In this document: in pieces, positions 2,696-12,717 of the stretch | Layout: the number at the start of each line of letters is the position of its first letter | How positions within the stretch are numbered: the stretch's first letter is position 1 | DNA from: a virus | Lineage: Duplodnaviria > Heunggongvirae > Uroviricota > Caudoviricetes | IMG/VR virus record: IMGVR_UViG_2778261593_000004 | Coordinates: 1-12,717 of that record | Length of the DNA: 12,717 bases | Direction: 5' to 3' (one strand) | Made by a program: the position numbers and the translations under genes | Notes under the pieces: generated by a model | The model's database searches: none | Told to the model about the DNA's origin: nothing | What the model saw: the letters and a program-made list of their open reading frames with translations, nothing else

Positions 2696-3517
2696 TTAAG
2701 ACACCTTCCTGAAAATTACTAGCGGTGTCATACCATAGGAAGTTTCGCTCCTCCCAATCATTCCACGAATACCTTCAAGCATATAGTCTATTGTGCCTCT
2801 GATTTCGTCAGAAGGAAATATTGACTCTGAAACTGTCTCGTCACTTATATCCGGGAGCGCATCTATAACACCGATGACATACCATTCACCAGGTATTCTG
2901 GAACCATACTTTAATGCAAGATTTCCCACATCTAAAGCTAAATCATCAGCCTTGACCGACATCCAGAATATATTTTCTTGATCGTCAAGAAGCTCTATCT
3001 GTGTAGAGAACGGGAGCAAAGAAAACATGTCAGCAGCCATTTTAGCATGATAAATTTCTTCTTGAATATCTTTTTTCTGAGCTGGTGATTTAGTCTGCTT
3101 TAGTTCTTTTTGTTTTGCATCTTTATATATAGGGAGAACATCATGAGCCATTTTCACATCAAATAATTTGATATGCCCTTTTACCATCACCAGACTTCCA
3201 ATTTCTGCATTTTCTAAGCTCGTTGCCACCAAGCCTTGTTCGTGCAACTTATCAAAAAAATTTAATGGTAAAGACCATGATGAGTCAAAATGCCGCTCTT
3301 GCGTTTTTGCAAAAGAATCCCCCGCATTTTTCCTGGCATTAAATAATGAAACGCCACCTTTAAGTTCATTTAATGAATGCTCAGAACTGGACGAGATTTG
3401 TTTTACAGCATTCAATACTCCTGATGGAAATAATTGCGCAGTGAAGTAACCTACGCGCTCTTTGTCAAGATAAAGGTAATCAAATAGTGAATCTACGGCT
3501 TGACAATCTTGATCCAT
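2696..3517 (-). CDS. Hypothetical protein, 273 aa, unknown function (AT-rich cargo gene)
   Basis: Long ORF. Start chosen at ATG 3517 (MDQDCQAVDS...) because GAGGAG lies 7 nt upstream; the track's upstream ATGATG at 3586 has no SD. No transmembrane stretch or recognisable catalytic motif seen. Visibly lower GC than flanking phage genes. Confidence 0.7.
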   Translation of the reverse strand: MDQDCQAVDSLFDYLYLDKERVGYFTAQLFPSGVLNAVKQISSSSEHSLNELKGGVSLFNARKNAGDSFAKTQERHFDSSWSLPLNFFDKLHEQGLVATSLENAEIGSLVMVKGHIKLFDVKMAHDVLPIYKDAKQKELKQTKSPAQKKDIQEEIYHAKMAADMFSLLPFSTQIELLDDQENIFWMSVKADDLALDVGNLALKYGSRIPGEWYVIGVIDALPDISDETVSESIFPSDEIRGTIDYMLEGIRGMIGRSETSYGMTPLVIFRKVS

Positions 3518-3659
3518 TGGCATGCTCCTCTTTGATCCTTGCTTTTTCCTCAGCAATTTTTCTTTGCTTTTCTTCGATTTCATCATACATCAATTGCATT
3601 TCAGTGATGTCGAACGGCTTTGAACCACTTTTAAGCAATCTCACCAGTTTGCGGATCAT
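3480..3659 (-). CDS. Small ORF (59 aa) overlapping the start of the 273-aa gene
   Basis: ATG at 3659 with GAGGAG 7 nt upstream; MIRKLVRLLKSGSKPFDITEMQLMYDEIEEKQRKIAEEKARIKEEHANGSRLSSRRFTI; stop at 3480 overlaps the downstream start by 38 nt in another frame. Below the track's length cut-off. A promoter-like AT-rich stretch lies upstream (about 3665-3760, minus strand). Confidence 0.3.
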   Translation of the reverse strand: MIRKLVRLLKSGSKPFDITEMQLMYDEIEEKQRKIAEEKARIKEEHANGSRLSSRRFTI

Positions 3660-3799: not shown

Positions 3800-3955
3800 T
3801 TACTCCTCAGGTTCGTAAGCTGTGAAGACAGCGACCTCCGTCTGGCCGGTTCGGATTCGTACCTCACAGAGGTCTTTCCTCGTTACCAGTGCCGTCGCTA
3901 TGACGGTTAAACAGATGACGATCAGGGCGATTAACATCGCCTTTTGCTGCTTCAT
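3800..3955 (-). CDS. hok: Hok-family type I toxin (HokD/RelF-like), 51 aa
   Basis: Translation MKQQKAMLIALIVICLTVIATALVTRKDLCEVRIRTGQTEVAVFTAYEPEE is an essentially exact Hok-family sequence. Below the ORF-track length cut-off, so found by manual translation. Confidence 0.9.
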   Translation of the reverse strand: MKQQKAMLIALIVICLTVIATALVTRKDLCEVRIRTGQTEVAVFTAYEPEE

Positions 3956-4011
3956 AGCCTGCTTCTCCTTGACCTTTCGGTCCGTAAGAGGCTAATCTCT
4001 ATGTGTCGCAT
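3952..4011 (-). CDS. Short leader ORF (19 codons) translationally coupled to hok (mok-like)
   Basis: ATG at 4011..4009, MRHIEISLLRTERSRRSRL, TGA stop overlapping the hok ATG (ATGA). Hok loci normally carry an upstream overlapping reading frame (mok) that controls hok translation. Confidence 0.4.
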   Translation of the reverse strand: MRHIEISLLRTERSRRSRL

Positions 4012-4075
4012 AGATATGGCCTCAGATTAATGTTAAGCGTCTTGCCGGACGCCGAATGTTAACTGGGGCTTTTCT
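3969..4075 (+). ncRNA. Candidate Sok-like antisense RNA with its promoter (boundaries approximate)
   Basis: Plus-strand TTGACC (3969-3974), 18-bp spacer, TAATCT (3993-3998), giving a transcript antisense to the hok leader/mok-like start; downstream nested inverted repeats (4033-4062) and ctatctgcc/ggcagatag (4073-4109). The 3' end is not defined by a clean terminator. Confidence 0.3.
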
Positions 4076-4511
4076 CTATCTGCCTTTTGGTGTTCATGCC
4101 TGAGGCAGATAGCCTCAAGCACCCGCAGCAATTCTAACTATCCAATAGATCAATGCCAACTTCTTTTCCTGCAACATCTCTCAACATAAGTGACCAAAAT
4201 TCACCCAATCAGCACAAAAGAAACATTTAAAGCGTGAATGCTACCGAACGTTCATTTCAATTACATCGTTTTGATTTTTAACAGTTTTCACCTCAACAAA
4301 TCAAATGGCATTAGCATTCATCATGGAAGAAAGACTGATAAAAATGATCATTTTCAATGACTTATGATCACACCGGGTATTGCCAAGTCATTCCTTTTAC
4401 GCCAGGATACCCACAAGTAAGTAGTCGAGGAGAGTTTGCCAATTTTTGCGATATAAATTTCAATGTCCGAAGAACCATTAATTGTTAATTGATTCTGTAT
4501 AAGGTTTTAAC

Positions 4512-5609
4512 ATGACAATTTCATATATTCCTATTCTGAAAGCGAAGCGTTCTGAGTTATCAGCTTTATCGCAGCTATCCATTGAAAAGAAATCAAAAAT
4601 TTTGCCATTACTCGAAATTGAACCAGTGCCAATTGACCCTGATTCAGGTATTGCCTTAAAGAGTTATAACGAGACTCTTATAGAGTTCGGAAAGAAAGTC
4701 TCAAAATCTTGCTCAGATATGCAAGGTGTTTATATTGATGGATTATTAATTGAAGAGCATTTTATTTCGCCTGAAGATCATTACCCTATAATAAATGCGG
4801 TTAATCAAGTTAGAGATATGGGGATAAGAGTTATTCCTGTCAGTTCACCAACTCGCCCATCTAACTATAAAAGAGCGATTGATGAATTAATACAGAATGA
4901 AATATGCTTGAGATTAACCACGTTAGATCTGGTTAACCCACAATTAATAACGCATTACATTCATCATCTGGGAATTCCTTTATCAAATATTGATATAATT
5001 ATTGACTTAAGAGATGAGTTAACCGAGGATAAACTTAATTCCGGCGAACTATATACTTTGGCAATGGGATTGATAAACAATCTGGCGCACCTCAATGAAT
5101 ACAGAAAAGTGATTCTTTCTGGGGGTTCATTTCCTACAGATCTCAGTGATATTTCTGTTGGTCTATATTCTCAACCTCGAATCGAGTGGATTTTATGGCA
5201 GAGTTTAATGAATAGAAAAGAACTTGCCAGAAATGTGATTTATAGTGATTATGGAGTACAGCACCCCGACTTTAATAGGCTTTCGACGCGATTCCCTAGC
5301 GTATCTGCCAGCGTCAGATACTCTGGAGATAATGACTTTTGGGTATTTCGAGGAAGAGTAGCTAATCGCTTTGGTTATGAACAATATGGTAAACATAGTG
5401 AGGATATTCTTGCTCATCGAGAATATTCAGGGCCTACATTCTGTGCGGGAGATAGAGACATAGAATATTATGCAAACGAGTATCAAGCCTACAAAGCCAA
5501 TCCCTCTGGTAACTATAAATTTGGTAGCCCAGAGGTATGGCGTAGGATTGGGCAAAACCATCACATAACTAAGGTTGTTGAGCAACTCGCCACTCTTTAC
5601 GGGCTTTAA
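4512..5609 (+). CDS. Beta-protein family protein (sce7725-like), 365 aa
   Basis: ATG 4512 with AAGG 7 nt upstream; N-terminus MTISYIPILKAKRSELSALS matches the Y-x-P-I-L-K opening I associate with the Pfam Beta_protein family (memory, unverified). AT-rich; the only sizeable plus-strand gene between 326 and 10249. Confidence 0.8.
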   Translation: MTISYIPILKAKRSELSALSQLSIEKKSKILPLLEIEPVPIDPDSGIALKSYNETLIEFGKKVSKSCSDMQGVYIDGLLIEEHFISPEDHYPIINAVNQVRDMGIRVIPVSSPTRPSNYKRAIDELIQNEICLRLTTLDLVNPQLITHYIHHLGIPLSNIDIIIDLRDELTEDKLNSGELYTLAMGLINNLAHLNEYRKVILSGGSFPTDLSDISVGLYSQPRIEWILWQSLMNRKELARNVIYSDYGVQHPDFNRLSTRFPSVSASVRYSGDNDFWVFRGRVANRFGYEQYGKHSEDILAHREYSGPTFCAGDRDIEYYANEYQAYKANPSGNYKFGSPEVWRRIGQNHHITKVVEQLATLYGL

Positions 5610-6147
5610 GTTTAACTCGAACAGCTTCACGAAGCTCGCCAACATCCATACTATTGGCGAGTTTTGACCATAAGACGCGTTTAGGTTTATTTTTCAAATT
5701 CTGTAGCTCCCCTACATCACTTAATAGGGAAAGCAATTCATCTTTCCAAAGAAGCATTGTTAAGGAAAGTTTGTCCACTTGTGGATTCAACTTGCTAGTT
5801 CGAATTGTTTTTAAATGGATACCTTGCCGTGCACCTTGCGTAACTTGCTTTATCCCCCACCATGATGGAACTATGCTTAAAGCATCATAAAGATGGCAAT
5901 CAGAGACAACCAACGTTACTTTATCCATCACTGATGAGTAATGTTGCACCTGCGCTGGTAATCTGAGCAAGTTATCACTCTTGCTCTTCAACTCATAACC
6001 ATGTATAAGTCCATTGATCACTGCTATATCAGCTCTGCTAGCCCCTAGATTCATCGTAAACTCATCAATGATTAGGGTGTCAGGATCTTTATGATGATCT
6101 CTCAGAATCTTGGCATGCACAGCCTTTCTTACATCAATGTCTCTCAT
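5569..6147 (-). CDS. PD-(D/E)xK nuclease-fold protein (sce7726-like), 192 aa
   Basis: N-terminal region shows hydrophobic-D (TLIIDEF), RADIAVING, then HGYELKSKSD: a D ... E-x-K arrangement typical of restriction-endonuclease-fold nucleases. Weak SD. 3' end overlaps the convergent Beta-protein gene by 41 nt. Confidence 0.75.
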   Translation of the reverse strand: MRDIDVRKAVHAKILRDHHKDPDTLIIDEFTMNLGASRADIAVINGLIHGYELKSKSDNLLRLPAQVQHYSSVMDKVTLVVSDCHLYDALSIVPSWWGIKQVTQGARQGIHLKTIRTSKLNPQVDKLSLTMLLWKDELLSLLSDVGELQNLKNKPKRVLWSKLANSMDVGELREAVRVKLKARKEWRVAQQP

Positions 6148-9476: not shown

Positions 9477-9999
9477 ACGAACCCCTGGCAGACATTTGTT
9501 TATCTGCAAAGTAATATTGGTATTGCTGACGATACGCACGCTTGAAAGCAATGGCTTTTTCTATAAGCTCGTCAGTCTCACGTTCCACAACAGCTGGATC
9601 CGCAAAAAGCAGCCCGGACTCCACCACATCGCCATATTCTTTGTTTAACCCGGCGATCATGTACGTAATGCTTTTTCCGTCAGTAATTTCACAATACAAC
9701 CTGAAATCGCTGATCCGGATAGCCTCCATAATTGCCGGAATCAGCGCCGTGAATTTTTCACGCTTATCCCTGGTGTCGATAGCTTTCCAGCGTTCGAATA
9801 TCTTCACCCTGTTAACGCCCAGCGCCCGTTGATCAACCGCGCCATCATCAAACGTGACGCGATGAACATCGATGTTCGGGCGTTCTTTCAGAGCCCAGAA
9901 TGCTTCCGTGATTAATATCGTCGCCTGCTCCTGCGTCATTCCTGGTCGGCATACCCAGGCATCCAGAGCCTCGCGAGCCTGCTCAGGAGTGAATATCAT
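9448..9999 (-). CDS. YdaT-like (CII-analogue) prophage regulator, 183 aa
   Basis: Segment ERWKAIDTRDKREKFTALIPAIMEAIRISDFRLYC resembles the YdaT core as I recall it (REKIQKLIPAILAIL...RLC); sits directly downstream of the Cro-like gene, as ydaS-ydaT in Rac. Confidence 0.6.
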   Translation of the reverse strand: MIFTPEQAREALDAWVCRPGMTQEQATILITEAFWALKERPNIDVHRVTFDDGAVDQRALGVNRVKIFERWKAIDTRDKREKFTALIPAIMEAIRISDFRLYCEITDGKSITYMIAGLNKEYGDVVESGLLFADPAVVERETDELIEKAIAFKRAYRQQYQYYFADKQMSARGSYEYRCTTMG

Positions 10000-10249
10000 T
10001 GTTCACCGCCAGTGATTCATTCGCTGTAGGCTTAATCCTGCCAATAGTCAAAACCGCATCAGCAGAAAATAATCCGTTTGATGCCAGAGCAATTTTTTCA
10101 GCGTAATTTGTTTCGCCTGTATATTCTGTGCGCGGTAATTTTCCATTATTCATCCATTTGTAGATTGCTCTTTGGCTGACACCGCAAACATCGGCTACAA
10201 CAGAAACGCGAACTGCTTTGATTACATCTGCAAGTGTTGTATGGCTCAT
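9983..10249 (-). CDS. Cro-like HTH regulator (YdaS/DicC-like), 88 aa
   Basis: Start at ATG 10249 (MSHTTLADVIKAVRVSVVADVCGVSQRAIYKWMNNGKLP) with a GAGGGTG SD; HTH-like VSQRAIYKW; divergent from the DicA-like repressor. Confidence 0.65.
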   Translation of the reverse strand: MSHTTLADVIKAVRVSVVADVCGVSQRAIYKWMNNGKLPRTEYTGETNYAEKIALASNGLFSADAVLTIGRIKPTANESLAVNNDIHS

Positions 10250-10328
10250 ATCACCCTCACAATGTGAACTTTGAGTACACAATATAACAGAACTGACAGT
10301 ACATTCAATAGTAAATATCATTGAACTT
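10250..10328. promoter_or_regulatory. Divergent promoter/operator region of the immunity switch
   Basis: 79-bp AT-rich gap between the divergent cro-like and dicA-like starts; repeated GAACT (10265, 10291, 10323) and AGTACA (10274, 10298) motifs; the dicA-like ATG has no SD, suggesting a leaderless or short-leader mRNA. Confidence 0.5.
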
Positions 10329-10748
10329 ATGGTTCATGAAGATGAAGCGCGTAAAGAGTTCGCCAGCAGGCTTGCGCTAGCCTGTGATAATGCTGGTTTT
10401 GAACAACACGGAAGGCAGGCAGAAATTGCCCGTCGAATGAAGCTAACACCCAAAGCGGTTAGTAAATGGTTTAATGGAGAGACAATTCCCCGTCGAGAGA
10501 AACTGAAAGAATTGGCAGCACTTATCGGAACAACACCAACTTACCTTCTGGGGGAGGACACTGAAGAAAGCGGAAGCCTGCGTTTCTATCAGGAGTTAAG
10601 TCCGAGGCAAAAAATCATCATTGAACTTCTTGATGAACTCCCTGACAGTGAAACTGATGAACTTTTAAAAACTCTTGAGGAGAAAAAACAGAAGTACAAC
10701 GCAATTTATGAAGAATTAGCGCGAAAGAAAAAACAAAAAGCCTCCTGA
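10329..10748 (+). CDS. dicA: DicA-like XRE-family repressor, 139 aa
   Basis: HTH region (EIARRMKLTPKAVSKWFNGETIPRREKLKELAALIG); C-terminal LSPRQKIIIELLDELPDSETDELLKTLEEKK resembles K-12 DicA (LSPKELELLELFNALPESEQDTQLAEM, from memory). Supported by a downstream DicF-like RNA and DicB-like start. Confidence 0.65.
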   Translation: MVHEDEARKEFASRLALACDNAGFEQHGRQAEIARRMKLTPKAVSKWFNGETIPRREKLKELAALIGTTPTYLLGEDTEESGSLRFYQELSPRQKIIIELLDELPDSETDELLKTLEEKKQKYNAIYEELARKKKQKAS

Positions 10749-10786: not shown

Positions 10787-11050
10787 TCCTCCCCCCCCTC
10801 CTGGTACTTTATCTCTCATAAAATGTACTAAAAGTACTTTACATTAGTGAACAAAAAGTACATCATATCAACCAACCCACCCCGTCCCACAGAACGCAGG
10901 GCAATACTTCGAGTTACCAGGCAGTGGTCAGGGGTTAAGTAGCCAGCCCGAGACGTAAGAACATGACGGCAGGGTTCAACTTTAACTATGCAGCAGGTTT
11001 TTGTTCCGCTACCCCGGCGTTAAGGGGATACGGCATTGCGAGGAATCACT

Positions 11051-11257
11051 ATGCAGAAACGAGAACCCGTCATCATCGCGCCAGACTATACCGATGATGA
11101 ACTTTATGAGTGGATGCGCGGGAAGATACGCGCCATTAATGACCTGAAGCAGGCCACTGATCACAAAGAGCGCCTCTCTGAAACACTGGCGTCAGTGACG
11201 CAGGATATTACCGCTCTGGCAAAAAGCGCGGCATTAAACGTTTCGCGAGTGATTTAA
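11051..11257 (+). CDS. Small prophage protein, 68 aa (YdfA/B/C-region analogue by position)
   Basis: ATG 11051 (MQKREPVIIAPDYTDDELYEWMRG...) with GAGGAA 5 nt upstream; first gene after the dicA-like repressor on the same strand. Confidence 0.5.
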   Translation: MQKREPVIIAPDYTDDELYEWMRGKIRAINDLKQATDHKERLSETLASVTQDITALAKSAALNVSRVI

Positions 11258-11281
11258 AACCACCGACTGATGAGGTTGACT

Positions 11282-11920
11282 ATGGAATTTAAAGATTTAC
11301 CAATTTCAATACAGGAAATGGCCGCTGATGTGATTCGCTCGCAACTGGCGCGGAACCCAATGATATTAGTAGATAAACTGTTCATCAGAAATTTATCAAA
11401 TCATGTCCGCAATTCCTTTACCGGACTGTATTCATATTCGTTCACAAACAATCATTGTGTAGAAAATAAAGCAAAACTCATTGCAGAAACGACAGCGCAA
11501 AACATCAACACGAAACCAACGGAAGAAGAAATTGATCAGTTTGCTCATGATGCTGGTTTAAAAAACAAGGAAGAAAAATCGCCATATGCGGGAAACATGT
11601 TTGTTTATGACAACCTTATCCGAATTCGTGGCGAAATTCCGACTGAATACCTGGCAAAAATTCACCAGGCATTACTTAAAAATCTGGAAACGGAAGTATT
11701 TGATGGCAACACCAACGGCTCCTTCGTGGTGTCAGCTCTCGCAAAAGAGTGGGATAAAGATAATCGCTGGAATGTTGCTACATGGTTATTCAGCAACAAA
11801 GCTTCCGCCCTGGAAGCTGCGGCGTGTATTTGCGACCTGCTAAGGACAGACCGCAAATACAACCTGGATGTGTATAGCTATATTTATGCTGAACACTATC
11901 CGCTATGGATTAACTGGTAA
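11282..11920 (+). CDS. Hypothetical protein, 212 aa, unknown function (AT-rich cargo gene)
   Basis: ATG 11282 (MEFKDLPISIQEMAADVIRSQL...) with GAGG 6 nt upstream; visibly AT-rich; no recognisable motif. Confidence 0.6.
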   Translation: MEFKDLPISIQEMAADVIRSQLARNPMILVDKLFIRNLSNHVRNSFTGLYSYSFTNNHCVENKAKLIAETTAQNINTKPTEEEIDQFAHDAGLKNKEEKSPYAGNMFVYDNLIRIRGEIPTEYLAKIHQALLKNLETEVFDGNTNGSFVVSALAKEWDKDNRWNVATWLFSNKASALEAAACICDLLRTDRKYNLDVYSYIYAEHYPLWINW

Positions 11921-12130
11921 TTACAAAGCTGTACCAGCAGGGCCACGACGACCAGCACCACGATTGTAATCAATGATGCCATTATAAAGCGCATTATTTA
12001 ATTTATCGTCGAATGCCGATTCTGTGAGTCCTAGCTCTGAATGAGTTTTTAATAACCCTGATTGCCTGAGTTGATTAACCAGGCATTCAATCTGTTTTTC
12101 AATAAGCGGATGTATTGGCTTGTTTGGCAT
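11921..12130 (-). CDS. Small protein, 69 aa, unknown function
   Basis: ATG 12130 (MPNKPIHPLIEKQIECLVNQLRQSGLL...) with GGAGGA 4 nt upstream; its stop codon directly abuts the stop of the convergent 212-aa gene (TAATTA). Confidence 0.45.
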   Translation of the reverse strand: MPNKPIHPLIEKQIECLVNQLRQSGLLKTHSELGLTESAFDDKLNNALYNGIIDYNRGAGRRGPAGTAL

Positions 12131-12458
12131 TTTATCCTCCATTGAGGTTACTGGTTGAGAATGGAGACCACACGTGACAGCGTGTTGTCGTGCGCCGGAC
12201 ACGGATAAGAATCCGGCACTGACAGTTTACTGAAAGGATATATCCCTGAAAAGTCAGGGCATAACGCGAAAGCGCACGGCGAAGTTATTTCTCCCTCTGT
12301 TGCGTGCCACCGGCATCTTCGACCGTGCGCTTCCGGTTGTGGCAATCCGCGAAATGGCGCGGCGGTAAGTATGGCGAGGCTATCCTTTCCTCGAGATAAC
12401 ACCGGGTTGTCAGGTTGACCATACGCCTGAGTGACAACCCCGCTGCAACAACCCATGT

Positions 12459-12511
12459 TGATTACCTTTTGGCGACATCAGTTTCATTGCTGGCTGATGT
12501 CCGCCCTTTTT
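12459..12511 (+). ncRNA. dicF: DicF-like small RNA with intrinsic terminator (boundaries approximate)
   Basis: ttttggcgacatcagtttcattgctggctgatgtccgccctttttaaag: an 11-bp stem with one bulge (12471-12505) followed by 5 T; pattern resembles K-12 DicF as I recall it (uuuggcgguaucaguuuu...cugccgcccuuuuu); lies between dicA and a dicB-like start, as in Qin. Confidence 0.45.
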
Positions 12512-12672
12512 AAAGTGAATTTTGTGATGCGGTGAATGCGGCTCAGCGCACGCGGAACAGTTAAAACAAGCAACCTTATGGGTGAAATACTCCGGCGTTA
12601 ATTGTTAACTGGTTAACGTCACCTGGAGGCACCAGGCACCGCATCACAAAATTCATTGTTGAGGACGCGATA

Positions 12673-12717
12673 ATGGAAAAGTTATCATACAATGCCAGTA
12701 CGTCTGAACTTCGTTTC
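12673..12717 (+). CDS. dicB: Partial CDS (first 15 codons), DicB-like cell-division inhibitor
   Basis: ATG 12673 with GAGGA 7 nt upstream; MEKLSYNASTSELRF compares with K-12 DicB MKTLLPNVNTSEGCF (memory); continues beyond the window end. Confidence 0.45.
   Translation, partial: MEKLSYNASTSELRF

Follow-up and report, generated by a model that had tools for sequence, protein, structure and literature searches.

What do two abutting, convergent genes in the early operon of a lambdoid prophage do, and do they belong together at all? We address this for a pair of open reading frames (ORFs) at positions 11282-12130 of the virus sequence IMGVR_UViG_2778261593_000004 (Caudoviricetes), whose 12,717 nucleotides (nt), referred to here as the window, represent the early region of an Escherichia coli lambdoid prophage of the Qin/Rac/PPompW type. 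The longer gene, ORF212, encodes 212 amino acids (aa) on the plus strand, and the shorter, ORF69, encodes 69 aa on the minus strand. A first-pass annotation, made from the letters alone, had considered the pair consistent with a small toxin/antitoxin-like or exclusion module. We find that the two genes very probably form a functional two-gene module. As to its role, we tentatively favour a reading that we regard as possible rather than probable, in which ORF212 is a repressor-controlled early effector and ORF69 its separately transcribed cognate antagonist, acting together in a manner akin to toxin-antitoxin or exclusion systems.

Two intact genes under purifying selection

The positions of the two ORFs, their abutting stop codons and the strong Shine-Dalgarno (SD) sequence of ORF69 are exactly as first described:

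11282-11920, plus strand: ORF212, an intact ORF of 212 aa with an ATG start (an alternative in-frame ATG at 11270 would give 216 aa)
11921-12130, minus strand: ORF69, an intact ORF of 69 aa
11918-11923: the tail-to-tail junction, read from the sequence, where the stop codons TAA and TTA abut
12136-12140, minus strand: the SD sequence GGAGG of ORF69 (CCTCC on the plus strand), 5 nt ahead of its ATG

Both are real genes under purifying selection, not chance ORFs. The ratio of nonsynonymous to synonymous substitution rates (dN/dS) is 0.18-0.23 for ORF69 in its own frame and 0.34-4.0 in the other five, and the gene is 210 nt long in every divergent locus; for the C-terminal domain of ORF212, defined below, dN/dS is 0.09-0.25. 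RefSeq annotates both products as hypothetical proteins, and some E. coli records name ORF212 'Ybl81'. In three records that are 99.6-99.9% identical to the window (L001, L002 and L005), the NCBI annotation pipeline (PGAP/RefSeq) flags ORF212 as a pseudogene 'missing N-terminus'. We rejected this status, as the 212-aa ORF is intact in both of the records that were translated (L001 and L005). The first ~120 nt of the window allele come from a different lineage of the N-terminal domain and the flagged part starts at about that point, so a divergent, mosaic N terminus is the likely source of the flag.

The first-pass annotation had also described ORF212 as much more AT-rich than its neighbours. 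The bias is real but only moderate: ORF212 has 40.8% GC (37.1% in its N-terminal part and 44.0% in its C-terminal part) and ORF69 41.0%, compared with 50.0% in the adjacent ydfC-like gene, 54.2% in the dicF leader and 46.1% in the whole window.

The pair is inherited as a unit

An exhaustive profile search of 1.84 billion representatives revealed that ORF212 is modular:

aa 1 to ~53: N-domain (MEFKDLP...NVRNSFTGLY or MEFKDLP...NVRDAFTGLY), a shared module
aa ~54-97: linker, variable and helical
aa 98-212 (11573-11917, plus strand): C-domain, a conserved alpha/beta region of ~110 aa

The N-domain recurs in ~45 clusters of small proteins with differing C-termini. The C-domain has just two remote relatives in this search, P0172 and P0187. 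An N-domain scan of a collection with one genome per species returned only three loci.

The C-domain and ORF69 travel together. Among 5,426 complete genomes of E. coli, 597 contain ORF69 DNA (at 744 places) and 600 contain C-domain DNA (at 751 places), with up to four copies of the pair per genome and carriers that include O157:H7, O145 and O111. Among the IMG/VR loci that we collected, 73 carry ORF69, and in all of them ORF212 sequence is adjacent; the stop-to-stop gap is 0 in 69, and in 63 of these both ORFs are intact. Across these 73 loci and the 5,426 E. coli genomes, ORF69 was never seen apart from the C-domain gene. Sequenced phage genomes in INPHARED yielded no ORF69 and, of ORF212, just the N-terminal 51 aa, in PPompW phages.

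More distant relatives extend this association well beyond E. coli. P0172 and P0187, joined by additional proteins from Salmonella that are 217-307 aa long, share 24-33% identity with ORF212; they keep the C-domain (~110 aa) and carry a different N-terminal part (MFNVKRNG...). Their genes lie in other integrative elements, ordered as integrase, helix-turn-helix (HTH) repressor, Cox, C-domain gene, Rv2179c-like exonuclease and ExoVIII. In 10 of 10 such remote loci, which encode four protein variants, a small gene converges on the C-domain gene with a 3' overlap of 11 or 53 nt, and these small genes are homologues of ORF69 (41-52% identity) that preserve the motifs IEKQIEC, SGLLK and F..KL and the tail RRGPAG(V/T)xL. 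A Salmonella element with another backbone (L008) carries a close form of the pair in which the stops abut. As no nucleotide similarity connects the remote loci to the window, the pairing cannot be put down to physical linkage on a single DNA segment. The retention there of the same C-domain and an ORF69 homologue, tail to tail, indicates that the unit under selection is the C-domain together with the small helical protein. The near-equal genome counts, the intact abutting pairs in IMG/VR and the remote pairs all uphold the earlier suggestion of a module.

Protein families and predicted folds

Both proteins match families without an annotated function over their full lengths, ORF212 matching phrog_2151 (E 2.9e-100 over 1-212 of 212 residues) and ORF69 matching phrog_4274 (E 5e-42 over 1-69 of 69). 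Neither has a match in Pfam, NCBIfam or PADLOC, in keeping with the first description of ORF212 as having no recognisable motif, and in PADLOC-DB v2 neither of the two proteins nor the neighbouring ydfC-like protein drew any family at E up to 1. The AlphaFold2 model of ORF212 has a helical N-terminal half of low confidence, followed at residues 103-199 by a beta-beta-alpha-beta-beta-alpha-beta arrangement with a predicted local distance difference test score (pLDDT) of mostly 81-90. ORF69 is modelled (pLDDT 74) as two helices, residues 8-24 and 37-61, that fold into a hairpin and are followed by a disordered tail, GRRGPAGTAL, which is basic, glycine-rich and conserved throughout the family; on reading the sequence we saw no long hydrophobic stretch, and the model has no informative structural neighbours. 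Remote-homology searches and structure prediction, which had been proposed as checks, thus uncovered distant convergent pairs but no named family by sequence or fold.

These features bear on a different account of the module, in which the large protein would act early as a regulator or anti-repressor and the small protein, made in the lysogen, would be an anti-factor that tunes the lysis-lysogeny decision or induction. The proteins of P0172 and of loci L182-L184 contain an XRE-type HTH insert, and their genes sit right after Phage_Cox and the repressor. The ACT/ferredoxin-like fold predicted for the C-domain is typical of binding or regulatory domains, and translational control is predicted in the leader of the small gene, described below. 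However, Pfam detects no DNA-binding domain in the E. coli form of ORF212, and no likeness to the anti-repressors Ant, Tum, Gfo or Rha emerged in Pfam or PHROG annotations. We consider such a developmental circuit unlikely.

A cassette between ydfC and dicF

The neighbours of the pair place it in a well-defined operon:

9983-10321, minus strand: dicC-like gene
10329-10748, plus strand: gene for a dicA-like HTH repressor
11048-11257, plus strand: ydfC-like gene of 69 aa, the left flank of the insert (75% DNA identity to K-12 ydfC; phrog_1744 match; RefSeq WP_001171935)
between the two ORFs and the DicF-like sRNA: GC-rich stretch homologous to the K-12 ydfC-dicF spacer
12456-12506, plus strand: divergent DicF-like small RNA (sRNA) detected with Rfam, the right flank (the feature including the terminator extends to 12511)
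12474-12501, plus strand: DicF intrinsic terminator, followed by a T run
12673, plus strand: start of dicB (dicB is annotated in near-identical records)

The K-12 dicBF operon of Qin consists of ydfA-ydfB-ydfC-dicF-dicB (PMC5069750) and shares the backbone and flanks found here, from the dicA-like repressor to dicB. Window positions 11027-11254 align with K-12 ydfC and 12189-12716 with the ydfC-dicF-dicB interval, such that ~930 bp (11255-12188) stand here in place of ~75 bp. This comparison confirms that the pair is inserted in the dicA-to-dicB operon, as first proposed. The first-pass annotation had left room for both ORFs to be conserved Qin genes. The pair is absent from K-12 Qin, but it is widespread, in the same arrangement, in prophages of the Qin/PPompW type. 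Near-identical prophages adjoin ompW in Shiga toxin-producing and enterotoxigenic E. coli (STEC/ETEC) strains from pig and beef.

The DicF copy is divergent, scoring 26.4 bits against an Rfam gathering score of 48, compared with 75 bits for the O157 copy. It keeps the terminator hairpin and lacks the ACUCC segment of canonical DicF. We also note an STnc100-like stretch after DicF (12518-12650, plus strand), which scores 40 bits against a gathering score of 47.

The interval between the ydfC-like gene and dicF is a modular slot, both flanks of which are conserved recombination targets. We sorted 102 N-domain genes, from the loci then in hand, into six C-terminal types:

C1 (124 aa, the commonest): usually no partner; none in 35 loci
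C2 (= ORF212): minus-strand partner m4 (= ORF69) in 22 of 24 loci
C3 (133 aa): minus-strand partner m9, 57 aa, in 11 of 13 loci
C4 (119 aa): minus-strand partner m11, 64 aa, in 4 of 5 loci
C5: minus-strand partner m23, 100 aa, in 2 of 2 loci
C6: always its own small minus-strand partner, in few loci (C4-C6 have 1-5 each)

The pairing by C-terminal type is confounded by linkage in E. coli, and remote homologues corroborate the C2-m4 combination alone. The Salmonella element L008 carries two tandem cassettes, C2 with ORF69 and then C4 with its partner. Nine alternative slot partners belong to no known family in Pfam or PADLOC (marginal PADLOC E values of 0.016-0.025). One of them, a 148-aa protein found in L064 (4454-4900, minus strand) and similar loci, has a long hydrophobic stretch that looks transmembrane. 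In PADLOC it marginally matches a SLATT-type DRT effector (E 0.025), and its gene may encode a membrane effector or be like those for superinfection exclusion (Sie). Separately, downstream of the two cassettes in L008 (9064-10578), three tandem repeats of IsrK and C4 antisense RNAs are interleaved with Phage_ASH genes.

A shared leader and overlapping transcripts

The minus-strand sequence upstream of ORF69 has the appearance of a structured, regulated leader, and further structures lie beyond its stop codon:

12131-12222, minus strand: putative structured 5' leader of ORF69, ~95 nt
12194-12217 (plus-strand coordinates), minus strand: leader hairpin 1, GCCGGA-N12-TCCGGC, near-invariant including the loop
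12166-12189 (plus-strand coordinates), minus strand: leader hairpin 2
12161-12166, minus strand: anti-SD CUCCAU, complementary to AUGGAG of the SD region (12137-12142)
12224-12252, minus strand: weak sigma-70-like promoter candidate from our own scan, TTTTCA-17 nt-TAAACT, whose -10 ends 7 nt before hairpin 1
11800-11861, minus strand: structures in the 3' untranslated region of ORF69, antisense within the 3' end of ORF212 and 60-120 nt past the ORF69 stop

The same leader precedes ORF69 homologues in E. coli, Salmonella and the remote elements, as well as unrelated small minus-strand ORFs. RNAalifold predicts hairpin 1 and an anti-SD:SD helix, with one compensatory AU-to-UA pair. The five predicted anti-SD:SD pairs form in 17 or 18 of 18 distinct sequences, and sliding the two partners against each other lowers pairing from 97% to 24-47%. 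Hairpin 2 is preserved with four unrelated stem sequences, and the window leader has a folding z-score of -3.1. Rfam has no match to 12131-12225 on either strand, even at E up to 10.

To view the leader without selecting on either gene, we sampled 80 IMG/VR loci through hairpin 1 alone. About 22 are K-12-like, with hairpins and neither SD nor small ORF. K-12 Qin itself (L004, ~2585-2650) retains hairpins 1 and 2 with no SD and no ORF, a difference from the window that accompanies the shorter spacer. Hairpins without an ORF may serve the plus-strand dicF precursor, may be a protein-binding site or may be relics. An attempt to assign the hairpins to a strand from G.U pairs and folding energies gave a mixed result and was dropped.

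No strong sigma-70 promoter for ORF69 was found by the prediction tool, and only weak candidates are present. In other contexts a different -10-like hexamer lies similarly few nt ahead of hairpin 1, in some cases without T at position 6. We also discarded pairing of DicF with the ORF69 SD, as by inspection the DicF variant of the window does not contain the complementary ACUCC.

With no intergenic space, any terminator for either gene must lie inside its partner. On the minus strand, a 15-bp inverted repeat at 11825-11861 includes two G.U pairs in the minus-strand RNA that are A.C mismatches on the plus strand, and a terminator-like hairpin follows at 11818-11800. An equivalent long stem forms in the O157-type sequence. 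Remote loci such as L176 have a canonical terminator ~50 nt past the stop of the small gene, within the large gene, with a compensatory change between L175 and L176. On the plus strand, nothing terminator-like was found before the DicF terminator, so the early transcript should run antisense through the whole of ORF69 to reach dicF and dicB. The prediction that the two transcripts must overlap therefore stands: the plus-strand operon crosses ORF69, and terminator-like structures for ORF69 lie only inside ORF212.

Such overlap raises the possibility that the element acts at the RNA level, as a constitutive antisense unit that insulates against leaky expression of the toxic dicF-dicB genes by transcriptional interference or an RNase III-sensitive duplex, with the ORFs as secondary cargo. 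The passage of the plus-strand transcript antisense through ORF69 before dicF and dicB fits this idea, as do the leader hairpins kept without a small ORF in K-12 Qin and the K-12-like loci, and the dicF precursor is processed by RNase III and RNase E (PMC5069750). The clear purifying selection on both proteins argues against it, however, and Rfam finds no DicF in the remote and Salmonella loci that were scanned (L175-L177 and L008). On this evidence an insulator is decidedly improbable.

The overlap could also be read as a type I toxin-antitoxin arrangement, in which the ORF69 mRNA would specify a small hydrophobic peptide in a different frame and the antisense transcript would control it. The candidate is as follows:

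11892-11990, minus strand: hydrophobic ORF of 32 aa, MRFIMASLITIVVLVVVALLVQLCNYQLIHSG, in the +1 frame of the ORF69 mRNA, spanning the gene junction

An ATG-initiated hydrophobic ORF of 32-38 aa occurs in this frame in five of the six E. coli/Salmonella-type loci checked. However, it is broken by a stop in L006 and missing in all remote homologues, its dN/dS is 1.25-1.44, and its hydrophobicity is a by-product of frame-shifted Gly/Ala/Arg codons. With the peptide not conserved and dN/dS above 1, we dropped this candidate, and the type I interpretation seems to us scarcely credible.

A putative effector and its antagonist

The reading that we tentatively favour, an early effector with a separately transcribed antagonist, would work as follows. 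ORF212 belongs to the repressor-controlled plus-strand operon, which comprises, in order, the dicA-like repressor gene, the ydfC-like gene, ORF212, dicF and dicB. ORF69 would be transcribed independently from a weak promoter; the anti-SD in its leader could mask the ribosome-binding site, and the structures at its 3' end lie within ORF212. ORF69 would then be made in the lysogen and ORF212 only upon derepression of the early operon, at which point the early transcript, fully antisense to the ORF69 mRNA, would shut ORF69 off by collision or formation of double-stranded RNA. At the protein level, ORF69 may bind the C-domain of ORF212 as an antidote- or immunity-like antagonist, with its RRGPAG tail perhaps serving as a docking peptide or degron. 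The outcome would be an effector that acts only after induction or, alternatively, an ORF69 that neutralizes the effector of a superinfecting relative.

Several known systems offer partial parallels. One is sieB (superinfection exclusion B) of Rac, lambda and P22, an opposite-strand gene in the repressor-controlled early-left operon; in Rac it converges on the DUF1391 gene ydaF with a 4-nt overlap. The sRNA kilS and the division inhibitor kilR follow just downstream in the Rac operon, and ORF69 occupies the same slot in the same orientation upstream of dicF and dicB. The positional analogy with sieB is fair and lends the term 'exclusion module' some substance, but ORF69 has no SieB homology and no Pfam match. 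SieB is a membrane protein of larger size; ORF69, predicted to be a soluble 69-aa helical hairpin, shows no sequence similarity to it. To our knowledge, strict coupling to a specific convergent partner domain, as seen for ORF69, has not been described for sieB.

A second parallel is with the operons of pore-forming colicins (E1/A/Ia). There, a repressor-controlled effector gene precedes a small cognate gene that is encoded on the opposite strand and has a constitutive promoter of its own, and the operon extends beyond it. Colicin effectors are themselves modular: their N-terminal part is conserved, their C-terminal domain varies, and a small partner matches it. The slot mirrors this pattern in its N-domain, variable C-domain and partner, and the architecture of a shared N-terminal and alternative C-terminal parts is indeed present. 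The two systems are not homologous, however. ORF69 does not resemble a membrane protein, slot proteins of the C1 type are mostly partnerless, and nothing in ORF212 pointed to translocation, receptor binding or export, although no search was aimed at signal or delivery domains.

Type II toxin-antitoxin systems resemble the pair in comprising two small, linked, co-inherited genes on a mobile element, here with a helical partner that, like many antitoxins, bears a disordered tail. They differ in that our two genes are not co-transcribed but convergent, with abutting or overlapping 3' ends in every locus examined; in addition, the two proteins match no toxin or antitoxin family, no DNA-binding fold is detected in ORF69, and ORF212 apparently survives natural loss of ORF69.

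A number of observations weigh against an effector-antagonist pair. Neither protein is similar, by sequence or fold, to a known toxin, antitoxin, Sie or defence family, and the C-domain is modelled with a generic alpha/beta fold of the ferredoxin/ACT-like kind and does not look like an enzyme. There are also natural loci in which ORF69 is lost and ORF212 apparently persists. The three additional E. coli genomes with the C-domain match a variant in which ORF69 is deleted except for its last codons; in the IMG/VR locus that defines this deletion junction (L022), ORF212 is still intact at 211 aa. An A7-to-A6 frameshift in codons 4-6 of ORF69 occurs in 8 of the 73 IMG/VR loci (L167-L174, O157-type), and ORF212 is intact in six of these. 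The commonest slot type, C1, lacks a partner in the 35 loci noted above. About 30 of the 80 loci sampled through hairpin 1 combine the leader and SD with a small ORF from at least 12 different families, some of them without a convergent N-domain gene. At the RNA level, the TTTTCA-17-TAAACT candidate falls below the threshold of the promoter tool, and G.U substitutions are mixed as to the acting strand, some favouring a minus-strand RNA and one a plus-strand RNA. The A7-to-A6 change could be phase variation, or else a mistake in sequencing the homopolymer in older assemblies, and the loci with ORF212 only are further confounded by the presumed repression of ORF212 in lysogens.

Several of the same observations point towards yet another account, in which ORF69 would be an independent, sieB-like lysogenic-conversion gene, or 'moron', and ORF212 an unrelated early gene for anti-defence or host takeover, the two adjoining only as occupants of one exchangeable segment. 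The use of one leader by many unrelated small ORFs, the usually solitary C1-type N-domain proteins, the recombination targets at both flanks and the persistence of ORF212 without ORF69 all fit it. Given the partnerless C1 and a leader shared with unrelated ORFs, the slot architecture may indeed account for part of the linkage. What speaks against independence is that all ten remote loci keep an overlapping convergent ORF69 homologue despite having no DNA-level similarity, and that ORF69 is never found away from a C-domain gene. We therefore assign this account a low probability.

For the effector-antagonist reading, then, and for the toxin/antitoxin or exclusion label first given to the locus, co-inheritance of the pair (in the remote loci too), purifying selection on both genes, the shared structured leader, overlapping transcripts with terminator structures of the small gene inside the large one, the modularity of the slot and its sieB-like position are supportive, whereas no likeness to toxin, antitoxin, Sie or defence families was found. 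A broader version, which we offer as speculation and hold to be doubtful as a whole, is that Qin/Rac/Gifsy-type prophages would use their ydfC-to-dicF junction as a dedicated site of cassette exchange. On the left it would be delimited by the coding sequence of a common N-terminal adaptor domain and on the right by a common leader, in which an invariant 5' hairpin is joined by a second, covarying hairpin and by a helix that sequesters the SD; effector C-domains and cognate opposite-strand antagonists would be swapped between these bounds. ORF212 and ORF69 would represent one ancient pair of a new, convergently wired effector-immunity class, governed by a new cis-regulatory RNA leader and antisense collision.

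Searches by 'Ybl81', by protein accessions and by ydfC/dicF/antisense found no relevant literature on either gene. The sequences are already catalogued as hypothetical proteins and so are not new; the new element is their recognition as an anciently coupled convergent pair, in a modular cassette site where a structured leader is shared. The pair is present in roughly one in nine (about 11%) complete E. coli genomes, including O157:H7, O145 and O111 pathotypes, and lies directly upstream of dicF and dicB. Expression of these two genes influences cell division and phage resistance and, in enterohaemorrhagic E. coli, virulence regulation. If the effector-antagonist switch is real, it would add a compact and tractable module to the sieB-type prophage genes that are read against an early operon, and would also mark a hypervariable site for the exchange of such genes among prophages. 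The shared leader is a candidate for a new cis-regulatory RNA controlling many unrelated small prophage proteins. Should the pair have no phenotype, it would be a well-conserved hypothetical gene pair of ordinary interest.

Other features of the window

The window contains a second convergent pair, at 4512-6147, whose genes overlap by 41 nt within an AT-rich island (34-43% GC):

4512-5609, plus strand: 365-aa protein matching Pfam Beta_protein PF14350 and PADLOC PD-Lambda-2_C (E 1e-41)
5569-6147, minus strand: 192-aa protein matching PADLOC 'cll' (E 2e-28)

From these matches, this pair looks like a PD-Lambda-2-like defence module, possibly a partial one. A hok/sok type I toxin-antitoxin locus lies at 3800-4124 on the minus strand, comprising sok RNA at 3953-4124 (Rfam RF01794, 107 bits) and a 51-aa Hok-like ORF at 3800-3955; hokD is annotated at the corresponding position in a related prophage. 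Finally, an AT-rich gene for a 296-aa DUF6414 accessory protein (2696-3586, minus strand) is situated between the DUF968/RusA region and hok/sok.

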